From a virus, in the UHGV virus genome UHGV-0121576: 41,663 nucleotides of DNA; one strand, written 5' to 3'. The translations under genes were made by a program, and so were the position numbers. The notes beneath the pieces were generated by a model, which worked only from the letters and a program-made list of their open reading frames with translations, had not been told where the DNA came from and did no database searches. This document shows, one piece after another, positions 76 through 41,663 of this stretch (within the stretch, counting starts at the first letter, position 1; each line of letters opens with the position of its first letter).

Positions 76-354
76 ATGTCCTTGAAAAAGTTATTACAAG
101 ATTGTGTTACGCGCGGTCAAGAAATGACCCAAGCAATTGCTATAGCTCAATTCGGTGATGATAGTCCTGAAGCTCGGCGTATCACGCGTAGATGGGGGAT
201 AACTGAAGTAGCAGATTTAATTGGTGTAACTCCTCAAGCAATAAGAGATGCTGAGAAGAACGGGCGTTTACCTGCACCTGACTTTGAAATGAGAGGAAGA
301 GTTGAACGTCGTGCCGGTTATACCATAGATCAGCCAGCTTCTCCAAATCAATAG
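76..354 (+). CDS. sopA: SopA/ParA N-terminal segment (HTH autoregulatory domain); reading frame breaks at about 334-346 relative to the ATPase segment
   Basis: Translation (AIAIAQFGDDSPEARRITRRW...AIRDAEKNGRLP...RGRVERRAGYTIDQ) matches the N-terminus of F SopA as I recall it; ORF stops at 352-354 and the homologous sequence continues in the +1 frame. Confidence 0.7.
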   Translation: MSLKKLLQDCVTRGQEMTQAIAIAQFGDDSPEARRITRRWGITEVADLIGVTPQAIRDAEKNGRLPAPDFEMRGRVERRAGYTIDQPASPNQ

Positions 355-355
355 T

Positions 356-1258
356 ATGCGAGCTGTTTTTGGCAACCCAAACCAACGGCCACAAGATAAA
401 AACCCAGTTGTGCTTGCTGTTATGTCACACAAAGGCGGCGTTTATAAAACATCGTCTGCAGTACATCAGGCACAATGGCTAGCATTACAAGGTCATCGTG
501 TTCTTTTAGTTGAAGGTAACGATCCTCAGGGAACAGCCTCCATGTATCACGGTTATGTACCTGATTTACATATACATGCCGAGGATACTTTACTGCCATT
601 TTACTTGGGCGAACGCGATAACGCTGAATATGCTATAAAACCAACATGCTGGCCTGGACTGGACATTATTCCTAGCTGCCTAGCTTTACACCGTATAGAA
701 ACAGATCTCATGCAATATCATGCTCAGGGTAAATTGCCTCACCCTCCTCACCTGATGCTACGCGCAGCTATAGAATCAGTTTGGGATAACTACGATGTTA
801 TCGTTATAGATAGTGCTCCAAACCTCGGTACAGGAACCATTAACGTTGTTTGCGCAGCTGACGTTATCGTTGTTGCTACCCCTGCAGAATTATTTGATTA
901 CGCCTCTGTTCTACAGTTTTTCACAATGCTTCTCGATCTCCTAGAAAGCGTTGACCTAGGCGGATTTGAGCCGACCGTTCGCTTGCTTCTGACTAAATAT
1001 AGTCTCACTACAGGAAATCAATCACGATGGATGGAAGAGCAAATAAGAAATACATGGGGATCAATGGTATTACGTCAGGTTGTACGCGTTACCGATGAAG
1101 TAGGTAAAGGTCAGATAAAAATGCGAACAGTATTTGAACAAGCGGCAAACCAGCGTTCAACACTTAATGCATGGAGAAATGCCGTCTCTATATGGGACCC
1201 TGTTTGTCGAGAAATTTTTGATGATCTAATAAAACCTCGCTGGGAGAACGAAGAATGA
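356..1258 (+). CDS. sopA: SopA/ParA partition ATPase (Walker-type), C-terminal 300 aa
   Basis: KGGVYKTS Walker A motif, LLVEGNDPQGTASMYHG and IPSCLALHRIE blocks nearly identical to F SopA; stop overlaps sopB start (ATGA at 1255-1258). Confidence 0.9.
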   Translation: MRAVFGNPNQRPQDKNPVVLAVMSHKGGVYKTSSAVHQAQWLALQGHRVLLVEGNDPQGTASMYHGYVPDLHIHAEDTLLPFYLGERDNAEYAIKPTCWPGLDIIPSCLALHRIETDLMQYHAQGKLPHPPHLMLRAAIESVWDNYDVIVIDSAPNLGTGTINVVCAADVIVVATPAELFDYASVLQFFTMLLDLLESVDLGGFEPTVRLLLTKYSLTTGNQSRWMEEQIRNTWGSMVLRQVVRVTDEVGKGQIKMRTVFEQAANQRSTLNAWRNAVSIWDPVCREIFDDLIKPRWENEE

Positions 1259-2244
1259 AACAACGCTCTCTTCTAAAAAATGCTCCGGATATTAATCGCA
1301 TTATGAGTAATAATCATCATGCACCTGAACATCAGCCGGTATCACCTATGGTTGGTGATTTAAAACGTCAACTGAGTTCATTAACCGGTAATAGCATAAC
1401 TTTGCCAGTATGCGGACGTAATGTTAACTTTAAGTTAGAGACGATCCCCGCAGATAAAGTAGAAATGGCAACAATGGTATGGCTAGGTAATGAGCGTGAT
1501 CAAGATTTATTAAATGAATCTTCTCTAGCTGATTTAATTCCATCTTTTCTAACTTCTGGGCAACAAAATCCGGCTTTCGCAAGAAAAGTGTCAGGTATTG
1601 TTGAAGTAGCTGATGGTTCTCGAAGACGTAAAGCAGCCATTATAACTGGATGCGATTATCGTGTTCTTATTGGCGATTTAGATGATGAACAAATGCAATG
1701 GTTATCGCAGATAGGCAACGACTATAGACCTATCAGCGCCTATGAAAGGGGGAAAAGATACCTGCGAAGGCTCCATGAATTTGACGGTAACGTAAAATCT
1801 TTAGCTGAAGCCGAAGGCGTGGATAGAAATATTATCAGCCGATGTATTAATACAGCCGGTTTACCTAAAGATATATTGGCAATATTTAACCATCCTGGTG
1901 AGTTATCAGCCAGAGCAGGAGACGCTCTTTTTAAAGCATATCAGGGACAGGAAGCAGCCATGAAAAATGCTGCATCTCAGTTGCTGAGGATGAAAAAATC
2001 AGGTGAAAGTTTAGATGCGCAAAGAATAATACAGGCTCTTCATGATTTCATTATTGTTGAGAAAAACAATTCACATGGAGAGAAAAGGGAAAAGAAATAT
2101 GGAGACGGTGTTGTGGCGAAATATGGGAAAAATTTCACAACATTAAAATTAGATAACAGAAAAATACCATCGCACCTAATGAGTAAAATTGAATCTATTC
2201 TTGAGGAGGCGTTTGGAAATTCTTCCGATGTAAAAAATAACTAA
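1255..2244 (+). CDS. sopB: SopB/ParB centromere-binding partition protein
   Basis: ITLPVCGR, SGNERDQ, DLIPSF, ADGSRRRKAA, GNDYRP SAYERG, HPGELSARAGDAL blocks match F SopB; translationally coupled to sopA. Confidence 0.9.
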   Translation: MKQRSLLKNAPDINRIMSNNHHAPEHQPVSPMVGDLKRQLSSLTGNSITLPVCGRNVNFKLETIPADKVEMATMVWLGNERDQDLLNESSLADLIPSFLTSGQQNPAFARKVSGIVEVADGSRRRKAAIITGCDYRVLIGDLDDEQMQWLSQIGNDYRPISAYERGKRYLRRLHEFDGNVKSLAEAEGVDRNIISRCINTAGLPKDILAIFNHPGELSARAGDALFKAYQGQEAAMKNAASQLLRMKKSGESLDAQRIIQALHDFIIVEKNNSHGEKREKKYGDGVVAKYGKNFTTLKLDNRKIPSHLMSKIESILEEAFGNSSDVKNN

Positions 2245-3586: not shown

Positions 3587-5799
3587 TATATTCTTTCTCC
3601 CATTTGTGCATCTGTCAGTTCCTTATGCCAGATACGTAAATTGCGCACGTGTCCAAATAAATGCCTGTTACCTGATATTGATTGACCGCCTATATTTATT
3701 GGCCCTTCTGTATAACGTTGTCTTGTGTGTTGTGATACACCAACAGCGCCAAAGTTACCGTTTATAACAGCACGCAATTCTTTCTGCTCTGTAAACTTAA
3801 ACCCAGCAATAAACCTGCGGGTTGTCCTGTTACAGTAGGCTTTATACTCGGTCTTTGTTCCTTTTCCGTTAGTTATAATTGAGCGCGCGCCTCCAGAGGT
3901 AAAACCAAAATACATATAACTTTCATCAGCAACATCCGTTGTTGCGCCAGTTATTGACACGTTAAGAAGCCTTGCTGAACCTTCACTGTTTGGCATTTTG
4001 TCCCAGTTGATATTAACTTCCATAAGAACGCTTAACGGAGGTGTTGACCAGTTCAGTCTTATTGGCATTATTACCACGTCACTAGCCCGTGTAACTGCCA
4101 CATCTGATGTAACGATAAATGATGATGCACACGATCCTTTTTCAAATTGCGGCGTAGTAAACATTATCTGATCGCCTTTTTTGATCGCCCTTTTATCTGC
4201 TCCCATTTCAAAGCGCCCATACATGCTTTTTGCTTCTGGTGATTTATATGTAAATTCGACGCGTAACCATCCGTTAGCTTCTCTGTATATGACATGATTT
4301 ACAGCATCCCCACCAGAAAAACCTAAAACATCACCAGTTTCGCAATCTATGTAGGAACCAGCTACCAGCGTGTTGCTTGTGCCGTCATCGTTAACGAAAG
4401 ATATTCTGGGTCTTAACGTTATAATACCTTCTCCATTTATCTTCTTAACCCTACAGGACAAAGTAACAGATTCATTTGCAGCAACATCAATAACCCTACT
4501 GTATCCAGTAGATATTATCGTCGCCCTTTCAGTGGTTGATGTTTCCTTTACATCGAACAAACCATATTTAAAACCATATTCATCAACCGATGTGGTTATT
4601 TCTATATTCTTGTCGTCATAATTCCATAATGAAGGATTGTTACTATTAGTAAATGTATTTGTCCTCTGACCTTCAATTAATAAACCTTCCTTTTCAAAGC
4701 GCGGCTCGTTAATTTCTGCAAAAGCAAATGAACCTGATTTGTTTATATACGTTGCAGAAGTGGAGCGAGTGAAAGATACAACCTTCTCTGATGGAAAAGT
4801 AATAACATCATCACCGATAGTGACTTTTTTATAACCTGGGGCGAAACCAGTAATCATTTCCAGTGAATCGTTAAACGGTATCCACACATCAGGCAACGGC
4901 TGCAAAACTTGTTTATACGGCTCCGCTGCCTGGCTTGCATACTCTCTGGCTGCGTCTTCACTTGCTTTAGCTGCTGTCTGGCTTGCCGCCGATGCTTGCG
5001 CCGAGTTAGCCGCCGCAGTCTCGCTCGCCTTTGCGTTGGTTTCACTGGTTTTTGCAGCTTTTTGACTGTTTGCTGATGCAGTGGCAGAAGCAGCCGCCGC
5101 ACTTGCAGAACCAGCTGCGGCACTCTCGCTTTCAGCTGCTGCATCCTGACTGCTTTTCGCCGCAGTTTCGCTGGCTTTGGCATTCGTTTCGCTGGTCTTC
5201 GCTGCCGTCTGGCTGGACTTTGCGTTGGTTTCGCTCGTCTTTGCGGCTGTCTCGCTGTTTTTCGCGTTGGTTTCTGATTTTTTGGCTGCTGTCGCGGAGT
5301 TTGCCGATGCAGTCTGCGAGGTCGCTGCCGCCTGTGCGCTGTTAGCTGCATTCGTTTCTGAGGTTTTCGCCGCGTTCTTCGATGAAGCCGCTGCAGTTTC
5401 GGATTTCTTTGCCGCCGCTGCGCTCTGAGAGGCGGCTTCGGCGTTGCGTGCCGCTTCTTCCACCATTGCCTCAAAACGGCGCAATGCCTCCGGCATGACA
5501 TCATCTTCCGTCATGGCACCGAGAAAATCATTCAGCGTACCTGGTCTGGAACCTTCATAGACGGTAATGGTCCCGGCATGTGAAGGCGGAAAACCTTCAA
5601 CCAGCAGGGTGACGCTGTACTGGCCATACTCAACATCCATGCTGTAACGTCCGGCTTCATCCGGATTTTCAGAAGCCACCGTGTTCACCAGTACCGTGGT
5701 GCTGTTACGCTTTGCCTTCAGTTGAATAGTGCAGTTCTGTATTGGTTTTCCCGCACCATCTTTCAGCACACCTGAGATTTTTACTGCTGCCATATCCAC
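3586..5799 (-). CDS. stf: Side tail fibre protein
   Basis: N-terminus VKISGVLKDGAGKPIQNCTIQLKAKRNSTT...GRYSMDVEYGQYSV matches lambda Stf; long Ala/Ser/Thr collagen-like repeat region; C-terminal 400 aa unlike lambda. Confidence 0.85.
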   Translation of the reverse strand: MDMAAVKISGVLKDGAGKPIQNCTIQLKAKRNSTTVLVNTVASENPDEAGRYSMDVEYGQYSVTLLVEGFPPSHAGTITVYEGSRPGTLNDFLGAMTEDDVMPEALRRFEAMVEEAARNAEAASQSAAAAKKSETAAASSKNAAKTSETNAANSAQAAATSQTASANSATAAKKSETNAKNSETAAKTSETNAKSSQTAAKTSETNAKASETAAKSSQDAAAESESAAAGSASAAAASATASANSQKAAKTSETNAKASETAAANSAQASAASQTAAKASEDAAREYASQAAEPYKQVLQPLPDVWIPFNDSLEMITGFAPGYKKVTIGDDVITFPSEKVVSFTRSTSATYINKSGSFAFAEINEPRFEKEGLLIEGQRTNTFTNSNNPSLWNYDDKNIEITTSVDEYGFKYGLFDVKETSTTERATIISTGYSRVIDVAANESVTLSCRVKKINGEGIITLRPRISFVNDDGTSNTLVAGSYIDCETGDVLGFSGGDAVNHVIYREANGWLRVEFTYKSPEAKSMYGRFEMGADKRAIKKGDQIMFTTPQFEKGSCASSFIVTSDVAVTRASDVVIMPIRLNWSTPPLSVLMEVNINWDKMPNSEGSARLLNVSITGATTDVADESYMYFGFTSGGARSIITNGKGTKTEYKAYCNRTTRRFIAGFKFTEQKELRAVINGNFGAVGVSQHTRQRYTEGPINIGGQSISGNRHLFGHVRNLRIWHKELTDAQMGERI
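4930..5470 (-). repeat. Intragenic tandem repeats in stf encoding a collagen-like AAKTSETNAK-type motif
   Basis: Visibly periodic DNA (gcggtctcgctggctttggcattcgtttcgctggtcttcgc...) and repeated peptide units; produces long spurious ORFs in other frames. Confidence 0.6.
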
Positions 5800-26466: not shown

Positions 26467-26489
26467 CAAAACCTCCTGACAAAGATACC

Positions 26490-26507
26490 GTGCGACCACG
26501 GTCGCAC
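26490..26507. promoter_or_regulatory. sopC-like centromere palindrome GTGCGACCACGGTCGCAC (site 1)
   Basis: 8-bp inverted arms around a central AC; core GACCACGGTC is identical to the F sopC repeat core as recalled. Confidence 0.6.
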
Positions 26508-26530
26508 GCTCCTGAATACATGCCCTGTTT

Positions 26531-26699: not shown

Positions 26700-26709
26700 G
26701 GTATTTAAT

Positions 26710-26727
26710 GTGCGACCACGGTCGCAC
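26710..26727. promoter_or_regulatory. sopC-like centromere palindrome GTGCGACCACGGTCGCAC (site 2)
   Basis: Identical to site 1, 220 bp away, same orientation. Confidence 0.6.
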
Positions 26728-26746
26728 ACGAGAAACAAAGAGATTT

Positions 26747-28419: not shown

Positions 28420-29541
28420 TTACTCAAATAACTTTTTCACTTCATCAACTGTCTGAAGATAACGTTCACCCTCAATCTCAATACCGATTGCCTGACGACC
28501 TAACTTCAGCGCGGCTTTAATAGTAGAGCCTGATCCCATAAAGAAATCGGCAACGATATCTCCGGGGCGGGAACTACTTTTTATAATATGTTCCATCATC
28601 GCTGCAGGTTTTTCACATGGGTGCTTGCCAGGATAATATTGCACAGGAGGAAACTCCCATACATCGGTATAAGGTACATCAGCAGTAACATGAAATGGGC
28701 GGCGCAAATTTTCATACTGAGCCTTCAAATCATCATACTGCTTCTTTACTTCCTCATAACGCAATTTCAGATCGCTATAACGCTTTTCATGTTCTGAATA
28801 ATCAACATTAAAAGGATATGGACACGGGACACCGAGTGAATCTGCCTTCCTGCGAAATAATTCGCATAGTTTATTAAAATCACTTAATGATGGAAGCCGC
28901 CACTGCGAATAAGAAAACCAGTGCGAACACATCTGCTTTCCTGTTGCTGAATTAATGTCTGCGGCTGATATATCTAACTGACGGCGAGCCAGCGAAAAAG
29001 CATCAATTAGTGGAGAAAAAATATTTTTTCTTAAATCTGCACATTTTGAAGCATAACCTGACTGACCTTTAGCATAACCTGACGCGCCGTAATGCTCTGC
29101 AAATAATATTCTTTCAGTGGCAGGAAAATAAGCCCTTAAACTTTCTTTATGACAACCGCGCCACATACCACTGGGTTTAGCCCAAATGATAAGGTTCAGA
29201 ACATTGAAACGGTCGCGAGTTAATAATTCAATTTTTGACGCAAGGCGAGAGCCGGTAAACATATACAGGCTGCCATTAGGGGCCAATATCCGCCAAAATT
29301 CTGCCAAAAATTCATCAATCCACCCCAAAAAGTCAGCATCGCTATCCCACTGGTTATCCCATGCGTTAGCCTTTACGCCGAAGTATGGTGGGTCTGTTGC
29401 AATCAAATTGACCGAGTTATCAGGGATGGTTTTGATAAATTGCAGAGAATCTGCGCAAACGAGTTGCGCGCCATGAATATTAGTGGTTTTGAACATAGCT
29501 ATTATTTTTTTGCCTGGGTAAGCTAACCCGGCGATGCGCAT
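28420..29541 (-). CDS. Orphan DNA methyltransferase (N6-adenine or N4-cytosine, beta class)
   Basis: Motif IV DPPYF near the N-terminus and motif I FFMGSGST near the C-terminus; no adjacent restriction endonuclease; true start may be the internal Met at about 29496. Confidence 0.8.
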   Translation of the reverse strand: MRIAGLAYPGKKIIAMFKTTNIHGAQLVCADSLQFIKTIPDNSVNLIATDPPYFGVKANAWDNQWDSDADFLGWIDEFLAEFWRILAPNGSLYMFTGSRLASKIELLTRDRFNVLNLIIWAKPSGMWRGCHKESLRAYFPATERILFAEHYGASGYAKGQSGYASKCADLRKNIFSPLIDAFSLARRQLDISAADINSATGKQMCSHWFSYSQWRLPSLSDFNKLCELFRRKADSLGVPCPYPFNVDYSEHEKRYSDLKLRYEEVKKQYDDLKAQYENLRRPFHVTADVPYTDVWEFPPVQYYPGKHPCEKPAAMMEHIIKSSSRPGDIVADFFMGSGSTIKAALKLGRQAIGIEIEGERYLQTVDEVKKLFE

Positions 29542-29631
29542 CGCGGGTGGGCTTTAGGTTCAGCCTATAGCTCTGGCATGGGTTGACCGCAGGACAAGCT
29601 GCAACTTGTCCTGCGCCCACTTTTCAGGCAC

Positions 29632-29655
29632 AAAAAAACCGCCATAAAGGCGGCT
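29632..29655 (-). terminator. Promoter-proximal intrinsic terminator in the late-operon leader (tR-prime-like)
   Basis: Minus strand GCCGCC-TTTA-TGGCGG followed by TTTTTTT, about 40 nt downstream of the candidate late promoter. Confidence 0.5.
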
Positions 29656-29691
29656 TGTTGGCTGTTGGGTACAAAAAACCCAACTTAACAA

Positions 29692-29720
29692 ACAATAACT
29701 AAAAACCGTAATTTTGCCAA
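29692..29720 (-). promoter_or_regulatory. Candidate late promoter (-35 TTGGCA, 17-nt spacer, -10 TATTGT)
   Basis: Sigma-70-like hexamers read on the minus strand, 20 bp downstream of palindrome site 3. Confidence 0.35.
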
Positions 29721-29739
29721 GCTTTTTCGTTTTTGTGCT

Positions 29740-29757
29740 GTGCGACCGTGGTCGCAC
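29740..29757. promoter_or_regulatory. sopC-like centromere palindrome GTGCGACCGTGGTCGCAC (site 3, opposite orientation)
   Basis: Same arms as sites 1 and 2 with central GT; flanking CT and AG extend the symmetry to 22 bp. Confidence 0.6.
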
Positions 29758-29762
29758 AGTTT

Positions 29763-29990
29763 TTAGAAAGTTGCCTGCTTATATTCATCGGTCAAAGAAT
29801 ATCGACCAGACCCGCTACGCTTTGCAACCCCAAAACAGATCATCTGTTCGATGATAAATTCAACGGCAGCTTGACTCAAAAAACAGGCTTCGCTTAACTC
29901 TTTCAGGGAAATGCGTGGGTATCCACGCATAACACATTCCACACTCAGGGCCGCTTCAGTCATATTTCCACGAATTTCATTAATATTCAT
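29763..29990 (-). CDS. Hypothetical 75-aa protein (possible small DNA-binding protein)
   Basis: ORF only; last gene before the late-promoter leader. Confidence 0.4.
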   Translation of the reverse strand: MNINEIRGNMTEAALSVECVMRGYPRISLKELSEACFLSQAAVEFIIEQMICFGVAKRSGSGRYSLTDEYKQATF

Positions 29991-34707: not shown

Positions 34708-35008
34708 TTTCTTGTGCGACCACGGTCGCACCCTCTCTGATTTCCAAGTAACGCTTAATCCAAAGATTTTCTATATGCTTATTACCTGGCTGATTTGATA
34801 AATACCAATCGGCAATTACAGACTGCTTATTACTATCTGGTCGTGTCCTGTAACCACAAGTTGGACACCAGATAACATATTCATTTCTTACCCCCGAATA
34901 CCTTAATTCTGGCTTCGACGGTTTCCTGAACATAACTTGTTTACAAAGGCAGAATGGCACTTCCTGCCCGATGGCGTTTGATGATTTCACTGCGCTTCTC
35001 CGCCGCAT
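34688..35008 (-). CDS. Small Cys-rich zinc-ribbon protein (possibly Lar-like)
   Basis: CLC and WCPTCG pairs; overlaps the end of the upstream ORF, so the start is uncertain. Confidence 0.35.
   Translation of the reverse strand: MRRRSAVKSSNAIGQEVPFCLCKQVMFRKPSKPELRYSGVRNEYVIWCPTCGYRTRPDSNKQSVIADWYLSNQPGNKHIENLWIKRYLEIREGATVVAQENENNAI
34714..34731. promoter_or_regulatory. sopC-like centromere palindrome GTGCGACCACGGTCGCAC (site 4)
   Basis: Identical to sites 1 and 2; lies between the Q-like/zinc-ribbon genes and the downstream operon. Confidence 0.6.
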
Positions 35009-35651
35009 TTAATAATGCAGTTCGATTTAAGCTCAGACATCGCGACTTAATTAAAAGCCAGCGTTCTTTATAATCTTGTCTCCAGCTATCAATAGATATA
35101 TTCAGTAGAAAACTCAGATGCCTGTCCTGTTCTCTCTCATCAACTGCCTCAGCACACGTAAGTTCTGACTTAACCTGCTGTGCCGCGTAATAAATCAATT
35201 TTCTCATGGCTTTTTTCGTGGAGGCCTTCATTTTTTTAAACCCGCCACCCGAATGCGCAACCAGAAAATCAAGCCATAACCACTGACAAACAATCACATC
35301 ATTGTTGTAGTCAGGCTTGCATCCGTAGCAATAATAAAGCCAGGCTGATTCCTCGTTATTCAACTGACCAATAGCCCTGCGCCAGCTGGCGCTCTGAAAA
35401 TCAATATCAGTGAGCAACATTGATGATTGTTTAAATGTTTTGCCCTGGTGGAATCTAACCGGCTCAGCAGGAACAGACACTTCGTATGAGTTATCATCAC
35501 CTACACTGATTGACCGGACTGGTTTATTGTTAAAGCGTCCTGATCTGCCTAGACGCATCTGCTCAAGCTGGACCTCTAGGATGCCACGCTGGCGATAATG
35601 AATATCAGCCAATGCCGTGGAGACGCAGCTGCGTATATACTCAAGCTCCAC
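34941..35651 (-). CDS. Putative late regulator (antiterminator Q-like by position only)
   Basis: 236-aa ORF immediately downstream of the Cro-like gene, as in the N15 cro-Q arrangement; no sequence motif confirmed. Confidence 0.3.
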   Translation of the reverse strand: MELEYIRSCVSTALADIHYRQRGILEVQLEQMRLGRSGRFNNKPVRSISVGDDNSYEVSVPAEPVRFHQGKTFKQSSMLLTDIDFQSASWRRAIGQLNNEESAWLYYCYGCKPDYNNDVIVCQWLWLDFLVAHSGGGFKKMKASTKKAMRKLIYYAAQQVKSELTCAEAVDEREQDRHLSFLLNISIDSWRQDYKERWLLIKSRCLSLNRTALLNAAEKRSEIIKRHRAGSAILPL

Positions 35652-36795: not shown

Positions 36796-39700
36796 ATGAC
36801 ATTAAACGATTTCTATGCGGATCGCTTTGGCAGCGATCCGTTCTCGCTAATTGAAGCAGCACGGGATGAACTAACCGAGCTGGCACAGATGGCTGGTATC
36901 AACTGGTCTGCCTGTTCCGACAACATCCAACTCAACCCTCGCGGGGGTGTTGAGCGTTACTCTTCATACAATAAAACATCCCCAGAAGCTCTCGAAAAGA
37001 GCCTCAAAGGACGCGTAGAAATTTACTCCCGGCTGGAACACAGCAAAGGGATTGATTACCCGTTCATTAACTTCGTCCATAAAGGCAGCGATGCTGGCTC
37101 ATGGAGCGGTTTCTCCTTCCTGTTTTCTGAATATCGCCGTGAGCAACAACGGAATAATGCGACCGTGGTCGCACAACCGGAAGAAGAACGGGCAAGAATA
37201 GAACGTCAGGCCGAAGCACGTCGTCGCCGTGAAGAACAAAAACGAATTAATGACCTGAAAAACAACCAAATGGACCATGAACGTTTGCTGGGATGGCTGG
37301 CATTCCACAGTGCTTGGGAACATGCTCCTGCAGAAGACGGCTCATGGCCATATGCGATTAAAAAAGGTATTCGTGACGTTTTTAATTCGTGTGATGTGCG
37401 TCGCGTGACCAGTCACGACAGCGCAAAATGGAGCAGGGGGCCAACCACGTATATGGCTATCCCTCTGGCTCACCTGGACGGTCGTTACGATGGTCGTATT
37501 GTTGGTTGGCAGCGAATCGACAAACAAGGTGGAAAATACCAGACCAGCGCCGTAACCAGCGGCGATTTCGTCGGTGCCTGCTTTGTTATCGGTGAGCTGA
37601 AAGGGGCGCAAAACATCGCTGTTACAGAAGGTTTTGCTACTGGTGCATCCATCTGGCTTGCCACGAAAAAAGATAAACGCTTTGACGCTGTGGTTGTCGC
37701 TGTATCCGCTAACAACATGGTTCATGTTGTGGAACAACTGGTAAACATGTACCCGGCGGCAAAAATCACCTGCGCACTGGATAATGACCGGAAATCAGCT
37801 ACAGAAGGAAAAGGGAATACCGGCCTGCGGACTGGCTATGAAATCTTATCGAAATTCAACGATGTCCGCTGCGTCTATCCAACTTTTGAAGACGATCCGC
37901 AAATGGAGTGCAGTGACTTCAACGACCTGCACAAACTACGTGGACTTCGTGAAACAGCACGTCAACTGTTTGCAACTGCAAACCGCCTGAAAACTGGCAC
38001 TGATTTGCTATCTCTGACGCTCAACCGCCTGAAGACAATTAAGCGGGATAACCGTCGTACTTTTGCCAAAGAGCTGCTGAGAGCAGTGGATATTGGCATG
38101 CTAACCTGTCCGGTTCCTAACAGTCCGTCAGACTTATTTAACATGTTCTGCATCGTCCTGCGTGAAATTGGGCTGGAAAATATCTATCGCGCTACGGTAA
38201 AAGACCACATTGCCCGTCGCCTGAATAAAAAGTGCCGTATTGCCCAGGCTCCGCGCTCATTCAGCGAACGAATAACTGATCCCAATAAACGTCCTCAACA
38301 TATCACCTATAAGCGTTTTGAAACTTCGGTAATGACCGATGACGTCCTGAAGTATGTGCAATCACTACAGGGGATAGTCATCGTTCGTGCTGGTATGGGT
38401 TCCGGCAAATCTACTGGATTGTTACGACCTTTAATGCATAGCTCAGAACGTGGTATCTCTGTTGCTCACCGTGTTTCCCTTATTGGTGGCCTGTGGGAAA
38501 TGATGACAGAAGGAAAAGGTGTAAAAGCCGATATCCTGCACTATCAGGACCCTGGCTATCAGGAAATGGCTCCATACGCCAGTAAACTGACCATCTGCAT
38601 AAACTCGATTGTTAAAAACTGCTGGCAACCATTGATGCGCCAGCACGACTATTTTGGCTTTGACGAGGCCACGCAAGGGCTACGTGCCGTTCTTTCCGGT
38701 CGGGCTATGGAAAACCCGGTGGCTGTATTCAATACGTTAATTGACGCGCTGGCCAGAACGGAACAACACCCAATAATGGTGGATGCTGATGCGAACGATC
38801 TGCTGGTTGACCTGGCTGAACTGGCTATGAAACGCCGTGAAGAACTAGGTTTACCGGCATGGCTGCAGATCCACGTAATTGAATTACCTGTTGATGTTCG
38901 CAACCGCGAAACAGGTGAGCCAATCCGGGTTTTTTATACAGAAAAAGATCGCATTATGACCGAGGTGGTGAAAGCTGTATCGAATGGCGAAAAAATCATG
39001 TTGGCCACCGACAGCTCCACCTTTGCAGAAGATGTGACCGCCACCCTGAGAATGCATTTTCCTGGTAAGAAATTTCTGTGTGTAAACCAGAAAAACAAAC
39101 CAGAGCCAGAAGTTGAAGCATTTACCAATCAACCGAAAAAGATGGTCAAAAAATACGACGGCCTGATTTATAGCCCGTCTATTTCATCCGGTGTGTCGAT
39201 TGAGCAAAAACATTTTGACCGTCATTTCGGCATGTTCTGTGGTGAAGTTGTACCCAGCGACGCAGTGCAAATGCTACGCCGCGACCGTACAGCAAAAGAA
39301 TTTATTATCGGCTTTGATAAAGCTCGCGCAAAACGTGAAACTGACCCGCAAAAAATAGAACGAGCATTCGCCCAGGCATTGCTTGCTACCGCAGGCATGA
39401 ACGGTGAACTGACGGATGTCGTTTTCGATGGCGACCGTATATCAATGGGGGTGGCCAATACCGACTTTACCAGGATGAAAATTAAAGCAGCCGCAATTGA
39501 AGCGTCTGCGCGTAACGACTACGCCAGCAACATGATCTGCATCATGCACAGCGACGGTTATAAGGTATCGCCGCTGGCCACCGATTATGCTGCGAATGAT
39601 ATCGGTAAAGATCTGCGTAAAGAAGCGCGGGATATTGTGTGGGAACAGACACTGGATCTGCATCTCAATACAGAAACTCCACAAGAATCAGAGCGTGAAG

Positions 39701-40979: not shown

Positions 40980-41306
40980 ATGTCTACTACTGCATTTTTG
41001 GACAAACTTGATTACCGTCAGCTGCAGTTCTGCCGGGATGAATGCGATCGACGCATTAAGGCTATCCAGGAGGAAGAAAAAAAGGTCGCCTGGGCTGTAA
41101 CAGATCGTGGCCTTATCTTTGGCTGGTTCCGTACGGAGGATTACCTGAAAGCAGTGGAATTATTGGCGCGTAAGGCTGCTGAGCGTTGGGAACGAGCCGA
41201 CAAGGAAAACCCGGAGACGAAGTATGAACTGAATCTCTACATCGAGGGCAACCGTCTACCATTGTCAGAGTATAACGCTTTGTTTGCTGATGGTGAGTGG
41301 GGTTAA
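40980..41306 (+). CDS. Hypothetical 108-aa protein
   Basis: ORF only. Confidence 0.45.
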   Translation: MSTTAFLDKLDYRQLQFCRDECDRRIKAIQEEEKKVAWAVTDRGLIFGWFRTEDYLKAVELLARKAAERWERADKENPETKYELNLYIEGNRLPLSEYNALFADGEWG

Positions 41307-41308
41307 AA

Positions 41309-41663
41309 ATGGCTGTTCAATCATACAAACACCAATCCCTCTTGGATAAGGGATACATTCGCATCAAGCTAAGTCGTTCTCAGCATAAGGCCATTTTTAG
41401 GGTAAGGAAAATTCGTATATGGGATACGTATGCGTATTACTATAACGGTGAAGAGGTTATTGTTGAGCACTTTCTTGCCCGATGGTTTGTAGCCCTGATT
41501 TTTGTCCCTTTTCTGTTAATTGGCACTTTGGCAGACGGTTTTCCTAGCACATGGCAGGAGCTAAAGAAATGCCTTTTCCCGCATAGATACGGTAGCCTTT
41601 CGGCAGACAGCTGGCGAGTTATACCTGGTAAACATTCTGTGGATGAGCAACCGATTGTTGATT
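41309..41663 (+). CDS. Hypothetical protein, 3-prime partial at window end
   Basis: Open frame from ATG at 41309 to the last base with no stop; contains a hydrophobic segment. Confidence 0.35.
   Translation, partial: MAVQSYKHQSLLDKGYIRIKLSRSQHKAIFRVRKIRIWDTYAYYYNGEEVIVEHFLARWFVALIFVPFLLIGTLADGFPSTWQELKKCLFPHRYGSLSADSWRVIPGKHSVDEQPIVD

Follow-up and report, generated by a model that had tools for sequence, protein, structure and literature searches.

A probable late-gene control region in an N15-like linear phage-plasmid: centromere palindrome, promoter, terminator and folded leader ahead of the late genes

The viral genome UHGV-0121576, analysed here as one stretch of 41,663 nucleotides (the window), is a linear, N15-like phage-plasmid (genus Ravinvirus). 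On its minus strand, a centromere palindrome is followed by a sigma-70-type promoter, an intrinsic terminator (t1) and an 11-bp perfect hairpin (H2), ahead of a DNA adenine methylase gene and the lysis genes. We consider it very probable that this region is the major late promoter and late-gene control region of the phage-plasmid, at which transcription would be antiterminated by the Q protein with the assistance of the partition protein SopB. The arrangement of palindrome, promoter, terminator and leader, a real and well-conserved one, was known before from N15, and relatives already carry annotations for it. An earlier interpretation made from the letters alone (the sequence-only reading) had proposed the order palindrome, promoter, terminator and hairpin on the minus strand. 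All four elements were indeed present in that order and at those positions, and the elements proposed there were all confirmed, while a conserved TAAGTTGGG box and a 5'-terminal hairpin (H0) had been overlooked.

The leader region was 99.9% identical to those of Escherichia phages YDC107_1 and PhiR46_1, and positions 41124-41400 of N15 aligned with the 321-nt query at 83.5% identity, covering 86% of the query. By this alignment, the region is orthologous to the promoter and terminator of N15 gene 52. In the N15 record (GenBank AF064539), gene 52 is preceded by annotated -35 and -10 signals and a putative rho-independent terminator; the phiKO2 record labels the homologous stretch with a "putative plasmid partitioning site", a "putative late promoter" and a "terminator". 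The hexamers annotated in N15 and phiKO2 are those of the window. N15 shares with the window the order of palindrome, -35 box, -10 box, terminator, hairpin and methylase, the family of centromere sites, in which IR2 follows Q and IR3 precedes the promoter, and the family of Q. Its Q gene (gp40; gene 40 is annotated "late transcription activator") and IR2 lie about 5.4 kb upstream of the block formed by IR3, p52, the terminator and gene 52. The two genomes differ in the upstream half of the promoter spacer, in the number of palindromes (five in the window, four in N15), in sopA, which is frameshifted in the window, and in the distance from the -10 box to the TAAGTTGGG box, which is 1 nt shorter in the window than in N15 and even in YDC107_1.

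The late control of N15 by a distant Q was reportedly the subject of work by Ravin, Rech and Lane in 2008. This work is said to have identified the late promoter p52, to have found antiterminator activity for the Q analogue, and to have located terminators between p52 and the first open reading frame (ORF). Mutations in IR2 or IR3 reportedly delayed lysis, and SopAB together with IR2 reportedly stimulated an IR3-p52 reporter.

Viral contigs were scanned with the promoter-upstream motif AAAAYGAAAAAGNTTGGCAA, which gave 57 loci, 51 of them with a palindrome directly upstream; the alignment comprised 31 distinct leaders from phages of E. coli, Enterobacter and Klebsiella, and column counts below refer to these unless otherwise specified. 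The promoter (29692-29720, minus strand), which is the homologue of p52, is composed of a -35 box TTGGCA (29720-29715), a 17-nt spacer and a -10 box TATTGT (29697-29692), with a 9/12 match in the consensus scan. The -35 box is invariant, and the TATnnT frame and the 17-nt spacing are kept, while the upstream half of the spacer is free to vary. This pattern of invariant elements and variable spacers makes the modest match credible, and thus supports the sigma-70-like promoter of the sequence-only reading. Between the palindrome and the -35 box, an A-tract block (CACAAAAACGAAAAAGC; 29721-29737, minus strand; 11 of the 19 columns invariant) appears to resemble an UP element. Transcription is predicted to start at about 29685.

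The palindrome (29738-29759), a SopB-type site homologous to IR3 of N15, is a perfect inverted repeat of 10 + 10 nt, CTGTGCGACC-AC-GGTCGCACAG, with arms at 29738-29747 and 29750-29759 that are 100% complementary; previously described as site 3 upstream of the promoter, it runs 2 nt past the end then assigned to it. The 14-bp core GCGACCnnGGTCGC was found in five copies in the window (0.14 expected), and the perfect core of the IR3 homologue, GCGACCGTGGTCGC, lies at 29742-29755. Moreover, 15 of the 17 columns of the palindrome core were invariant. The IR3 oligonucleotide of N15 has been published (PMC7205306, Table 4), and the N15 row of the alignment is identical at the palindrome. The -35 box begins 29 bp downstream of the centre of the IR3 homologue, and this distance is fixed at 29-30 bp in every lineage checked. 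In N15, one site is located 185 bp past the stop of gene 40 (IR2) and another 23 bp before the annotated -35 box. The IR2 homologue of the window (34713-34732), whose flanks match N15 IR2 at 18 of 23 positions, has a core that begins 212 bp past the Q stop codon, and the centres of the IR2 and IR3 homologues are separated by 4974 bp. The centromere-binding partition protein is encoded by an intact sopB gene (1255-2244, plus strand), which matched the NCBIfam equivalog model NF010252 with 405.5 bits, for a cutoff of 274.

The Q antiterminator gene (34941-35651, minus strand) belongs to the phage-82 Q family. Its product matched PF06323 with E = 2e-84 and 283.1 bits, for a cutoff of 25, over residues 2-229 and profile positions 2-219 of 220; it was also assigned to phrog_304 ("anti-termination protein Q-like") and was 66.9% identical to N15 gp40 (tblastn). 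It is the only Q-family gene in the window, and its stop codon (34941) lies 5.2 kb upstream of the -35 box (29720), in agreement with the only Q-like candidate having been placed about 5 kb away. Structures of lambda Q and Q21 are present in the PDB, and a PDB sequence search with this Q protein gave no chain at E below 0.8. On the other side of the control region, the first late gene encodes the DNA adenine methylase (28420-29496, minus strand; PF01555, E = 4.6e-46), a homologue of N15 gp52, and is followed by genes for a holin, a lysozyme and Rz; the leader therefore precedes the methyltransferase and lysis genes, as had been suggested.

Terminator t1 (29632-29656, minus strand), with the sequence AAGCCGCC-UUUAU-GGCGGUUU followed by U7, was reported by the terminator scan with its run of seven T. 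Its stem (29656-29636) has eight pairs and a 5-nt loop, the T7 run occupies 29638-29632, and the predicted fold has an energy of -12.9 kcal/mol (z = -4.35 versus shuffles). The stem begins 36 nt after the -10 box, where a GC stem with seven T had been proposed about 40 nt downstream of the promoter. The arms CCGCC/GGCGG and the T7 run are invariant, the loop occurs in seven variants and the linkers are variable. RNA released at t1 would be about 52-56 nt long. In one relative (IMGVR_UViG_3300036846_000707, positions 4895-5400), the t1 loop is interrupted by an insertion sequence, which has a terminal repeat and a transposase ORF beginning MARKKFTPEFKQQVV; in that relative it separates the promoter from the late genes.

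The TAAGTTGGG box (29679-29687, minus strand; 7 of the 9 columns invariant) lies 4-5 nt past the -10 box, overlaps the predicted start, and combines a -10-like hexamer with GGG. The lambda pR' sequence, TTGACT-17-TAAATT-TGACTC-AACGATGGG, has a parallel layout, with the -10 box, six nucleotides and then AACGATGGG. In lambda, AACGAT at +1 to +6 is a -10-like element that holds sigma-70 and pauses polymerase for Q loading. Since the -10-like hexamer and GGG are placed as in lambda, we propose that the TAAGTTGGG box is a sigma-70-dependent, promoter-proximal pause element at which Q would load. Between the -10 box and the TAAGTTGGG box, the window has TTGT (29688-29691), one T fewer than YDC107_1 and most relatives (TTTGT); this spacing, which is shifted by 1 nt, is shared with only one viral contig. 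The 5'-terminal RNA hairpin H0 (29664-29684, minus strand) pairs GUUGGGU with ACCCAAC, giving 7 bp around a 7-nt loop (-10.4 kcal/mol; z = -3.5 versus shuffles). In about half of the sequences, pairs have changed from U-A to U-G and from G-C to G-U without loss of pairing, and a role in protection of the 5' end is plausible.

The resemblance to lambda pR'/tR' put forward in the sequence-only reading, a promoter and then a terminator ahead of the late genes, is consistent with the orthology to N15 and the lambda-like layout. As at lambda pR'-6S RNA-tR', transcription from the promoter would end early and yield only a short RNA if the polymerase were not modified by Q; a -10-like hexamer with GGG is found at the transcript start in both (AACGATGGG and TAAGTTGGG, respectively), and lysis and morphogenesis genes lie downstream. 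The two systems differ in the position of Q, which ends 77 bp before the -35 box of pR' in lambda and 5.2 kb away in the window, and in its family, Q of the window belonging to PF06323 and not to the lambda Q family. The short RNA of lambda is about 194 nt, versus about 55 nt predicted for the window, and to our knowledge lambda has no partition site. Q proteins of the phage 82 type, from Gifsy-1, PhiR47_2 and other lambdoid PF06323 phages, are homologous to that of the window, with 25-30% identity; the Gifsy-1 homologue is annotated as similar to REGQ_BP82 (phage 82 Q). The corresponding late regions likewise have a sigma-70 promoter with an intrinsic terminator 55-80 nt downstream, and sometimes a second terminator. 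However, their promoter overlaps or abuts the 3' end of Q, and they have no centromere palindrome.

On the basis of this layout, the sigma-70 promoter (TTGGCA-17-TATTGT, with the A-tract before it) would start transcription at about 29685 and, without phage factors, RNA polymerase would make an RNA of about 55 nt that ends at t1, a strong intrinsic terminator. The TAAGTTGGG box would probably hold sigma-70 and cause a promoter-proximal pause of the polymerase, the role that AACGATGGG has at lambda pR'. A phage-82-type Q could then join the paused complex and render the polymerase resistant to terminators, and the modified polymerase would pass t1, traverse the structured leader and go on to transcribe the genes for the methylase, lysis, head and tail. 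SopB bound to IR2, after Q, and to IR3, before the late promoter, may pair or loop the two sites, so that new Q would be delivered to the promoter; the 2008 work is said to have proposed such pairing or looping of SopB sites for Q delivery in N15.

A more distant comparison was provided by Yersinia phage PY54. Its late leader, upstream of gene 60, shares with the window, element by element, the TAAGTTGG box, the 5' hairpin, the terminator, and the clamp and variable hairpin described below, and it also has palindromes after Q and before the late promoter. It differs in its Q (31% identical), its partition proteins (SpyA/SpyB, encoded by spyA/spyB) and its promoter hexamers (TTGCAA and TAAAAT). 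The counterpart of the TAAGTTGGG box is TAAGTTGGC, and H0 carries a compensatory change, G-to-C on one side and C-to-G on the other (GTTGGC/GCTAAC). In place of GCGACCnnGGTCGC, PY54 has the palindrome core GGGACCnnGGTCCC, in eight perfect copies versus 0.05 expected. Perfect palindromes are located 230 bp past the Q stop codon as well as directly ahead of the late promoter, and the sequence at the position of IR3, ATTGGGACCATGGTCCCAAT, is of the PY54-specific family. The positions of the sites are thus conserved, while their identity tracks the partition system, which gives independent comparative support for a functional link between centromere, Q and late promoter.

SopB at IR3 might instead mainly silence the late promoter in the prophage, acting as a safety lock and not in Q delivery, although the two roles could coexist. 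ParB-type proteins are able to repress promoters in the vicinity of their sites, from which they spread. The fixed position of the palindrome centre, next to the A-tract, would suit such a role, and the second palindrome found 47 bp further upstream in several Klebsiella-clade phages would strengthen nucleation; in addition, silencing through SopB spreading has been used as an assay (PMC7205306). Simple silencing, however, does not require paired sites after Q and before the late promoter, and these are kept in PY54 with a different palindrome. Moreover, mutation of IR3 in N15 reportedly reduced and delayed late expression, and did not raise it. Silencing as the main role of SopB at IR3 therefore seems unlikely to us, and delivery of Q is preferred.

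Downstream of t1, the 11-bp perfect hairpin of the sequence-only reading was located exactly where it had been placed (H2; 29588-29615, minus strand), with 11 perfect pairs, CGCAGGACAAG-TTGCAG-CTTGTCCTGCG (29615-29588). Among the perfect hairpins of the window it is the longest, and one of at least 11 bp was present in only 5% of first-order Markov simulations of the whole 41.6 kb. Its predicted fold has an energy of -21.5 kcal/mol (z = -5.2 versus shuffles). The N15 counterpart has a C-A mismatch where the window is perfect, as well as two compensatory pair changes. Among 23 distinct sequences, both sides had changed at 6 of the 11 pairs (0-2 in slid controls), through a few clade-level events only, and 87% of cells were paired; in the Klebsiella clade and in PY54 the inner arms are entirely different and pairing is retained. 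It is thus the structure of H2, rather than its sequence, that appears to be selected, which argues for a role as RNA (or as a single strand) over a shared protein-binding site in DNA.

H2 is enclosed by a clamp helix (29578-29620, minus strand), in which GUGGG (29620-29616) pairs with CCCAU (29582-29578) in 25 of the 25 sequences of the RNAalifold consensus. The per-clade minimum-energy folds agree with the clamp, and its flanks, GUGGGCGC and ACCCAUGCC, are nearly invariant. For an alternative partner, GCCCAC (29552-29547), the Klebsiella clade has both sides of a pair changed, from G-C to A-U. As far as these folds can tell, H2 belongs to a conserved folded domain of the RNA downstream of t1. 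The rest of the untranslated leader (29497-29587, minus strand), up to the methylase ATG (29496-29494), is C-rich and G-poor (31% C, 22% G), and the stretch in which C exceeds G runs into the coding sequence, to about 29440. A search of the leader against Rfam 15 gave no match at the gathering score (best 26.5 bits, versus 40), and the weak matches all lay over the terminator hairpin. In PY54, a copy of the phage's own palindrome core with one mismatch (GGGACCGTGGTCAC, 41122-41135) was observed inside the H2-equivalent hairpin, downstream of the terminator; by a rough estimate, about 0.015 such occurrences per genome would be expected by chance. This near-perfect centromere site in a leader hairpin may hint at binding of SopB/SpyB inside the transcribed leader. 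No likeness to a centromere core was seen within the N15-type hairpins.

H2 would most likely serve as an RNA stability or processing element, or as a weak extra barrier to unmodified polymerase, and we rank these two roles about equally. In its stronger form, the latter role would make H2 and the C-rich leader a second barrier, through a U-less hairpin acting as a pause or weak terminator and/or through Rho entry, and hence a double lock against Q-less polymerase. The very high stability of H2 and the maintenance of its pairing through compensatory changes are in keeping with such a lock, as are the 91 nt after H2, which are untranslated and C-rich (C/G = 1.4), and the UUUC that follows the hairpin in the Klebsiella clade and phiKO2; the N15 work of 2008 reportedly mentions two terminator-like sequences. 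We nevertheless find the double lock doubtful. In the window, H2 is followed by GUCAACCC, with one U only; because it has no U-rich tract, H2 is not a canonical terminator, even though its stem is G+C-rich, and it was not reported by the terminator scan. Its position within the larger clamp helix is more in line with a folded domain than with a free-standing terminator hairpin, and Rho dependence is speculation from composition alone.

The domain formed by H2 and the clamp could also be specifically an element of mRNA processing or stability, such as an RNase III site or a protective 5' structure, or could control translation of the methylase; we regard this as possible without expecting it. 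The conservation of structure and not sequence in H2, between nearly invariant clamp flanks, would be in line with processing or stability, and the late mRNA is very long, so that 5' stabilisers would be useful. For translational control, the conserved methylase ATG follows an A-rich tract without an obvious Shine-Dalgarno sequence. However, the domain has no Rfam match and ends about 80 nt before this ATG. With still more reserve, and as a rather improbable suggestion, the whole post-t1 domain (H2, the GUGGG/CCCAU clamp and the GCCCAC partner) may be an uncharacterised cis-acting RNA element specific to protelomerase phage-plasmids, acting as a second Q-sensitive checkpoint or as a switch in the processing or stability of late mRNA.

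Several observations weigh against our interpretation of the region as a Q-antiterminated, SopB-assisted control region. The promoter-like pattern was found at 7 sites in 2.5 kb, versus 4.3 expected, and has no significance alone; the start site, the pause, the dependence on Q and the looping by SopB were all derived from homology and layout; and the covariation of H2 comes from the few events mentioned above. A shared Q-binding element was sought by comparison with the late promoters of PhiR47_2 and Gifsy-1, and no recognisable sequence similarity to these was found; the Q-binding site can therefore not be located by comparison with such Q-adjacent lambdoid promoters. Finally, the gene for the partition ATPase, sopA (76-1258, plus strand), is broken by a 13-bp insertion, CAGCCAGCTTCTC (331-343), into ORFs of 92 and 300 aa, so that the Sop-assisted step may be impaired in this element. 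The 300-aa part keeps Walker A and has lost the N-terminal 89 residues; it matched profile positions 90-387 only, with a score below the cutoff. The insertion is missing from PhiR46_1 and from the 12 plasmid relatives listed, and may mark a true pseudogene, or else be an engineered lesion or an error of assembly.

Taken to the extreme, the arrangement could be a coincidence, in which t1 ends the gp50-gp51 unit, the hexamers act weakly or constitutively, the palindrome is there for partition alone, and the late genes are driven from elsewhere. The promoter matches at only 9 of 12 positions, sites resembling promoters or terminators are no more numerous in the region than expected from shuffling, and there is no terminator between gp51 and t1, so that t1 would stop the gp51 transcript too. 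We nonetheless judge coincidence to be highly improbable. The hexamers, their spacing, the TAAGTTGGG box and the terminator are conserved while the intervening sequence varies, and the architecture persists in PY54 despite low overall similarity. In addition, there is no other promoter and terminator pair ahead of the lysis and morphogenesis genes, and the annotators of N15 and phiKO2 independently marked a late promoter here.

Three other centromere palindromes were identified in the window. The IR1 homologue (37156-37175) is located inside the replication gene repA, with flanks that match N15 IR1 at 20 of 23 positions. The other two (26489-26508 and 26709-26728), 220 bp apart, are found past the lysis genes, in the part of the genome that corresponds to N15 IR4; N15 has a single site there and four sites overall, and its IR4 is annotated as a putative rho-independent terminator stem-loop. 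Five Klebsiella-clade contigs have a second palindrome with its centre 47 bp upstream of the IR3 equivalent, forming a tandem pair before the late promoter. The sites of the F sopC array are spaced at 43 bp, and a match of the Klebsiella-clade pairs to this spacing was ruled out by the 47 bp between them. The F plasmid has the same partition family, sopB of the window passing the SopB-type equivalog model, and its binding site is also an inverted repeat; its sites form a clustered array, whereas N15-type phages scatter single sites through the replication and late-control regions. The Sop systems of F and N15 are closely related, the sopC sites of F are clustered in a tandem array of 10 copies, and F SopB does not use the N15 sites (PMC7205306).

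Next to the palindrome, the gp51 homologue (29763-29990, minus strand; 75 aa) stops 3 nt short of it. This protein gave weak winged-helix matches (HTH_24, E = 0.0027), belongs to phrog_331, a family of unknown function, and is labelled a winged helix-turn-helix protein in the RefSeq record of phiKO2; it could be a candidate regulator of the adjacent late promoter. An ORF of 65 aa (29560-29757, minus strand), part of which is annotated as a hypothetical protein in PhiR46_1, spans the promoter, the terminator and the hairpin. It was rejected as a gene because indels of 1-2 nt break its frame in close relatives, including a 1-nt T indel relative to YDC107_1. The start of the methylase differs between annotations: PhiR46_1 uses an upstream ATG (29541; 373 aa), YDC107_1 the ATG at 29496, and N15 gp52 is annotated as much shorter. 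Conservation across all clades is seen only for the ATG at 29496. At the level of the whole genome, the window differs from PhiR46_1 by indels, and its left edge carries sopA and then sopB.

Overall, the region is recognised as a case of known but unusual phage biology, in which a partition system would have been recruited to help an antiterminator reach a promoter 5 kb away. To this, our analysis adds modest comparative support, in that the geometry is fixed across phage-plasmids of E. coli, Enterobacter and Klebsiella and the palindrome is swapped in PY54. It also highlights candidate elements of late control in this family, namely the TAAGTTGGG box as a probable site of sigma-dependent pausing, the hairpin at the 5' end (H0), and the covarying structured domain that follows the terminator.

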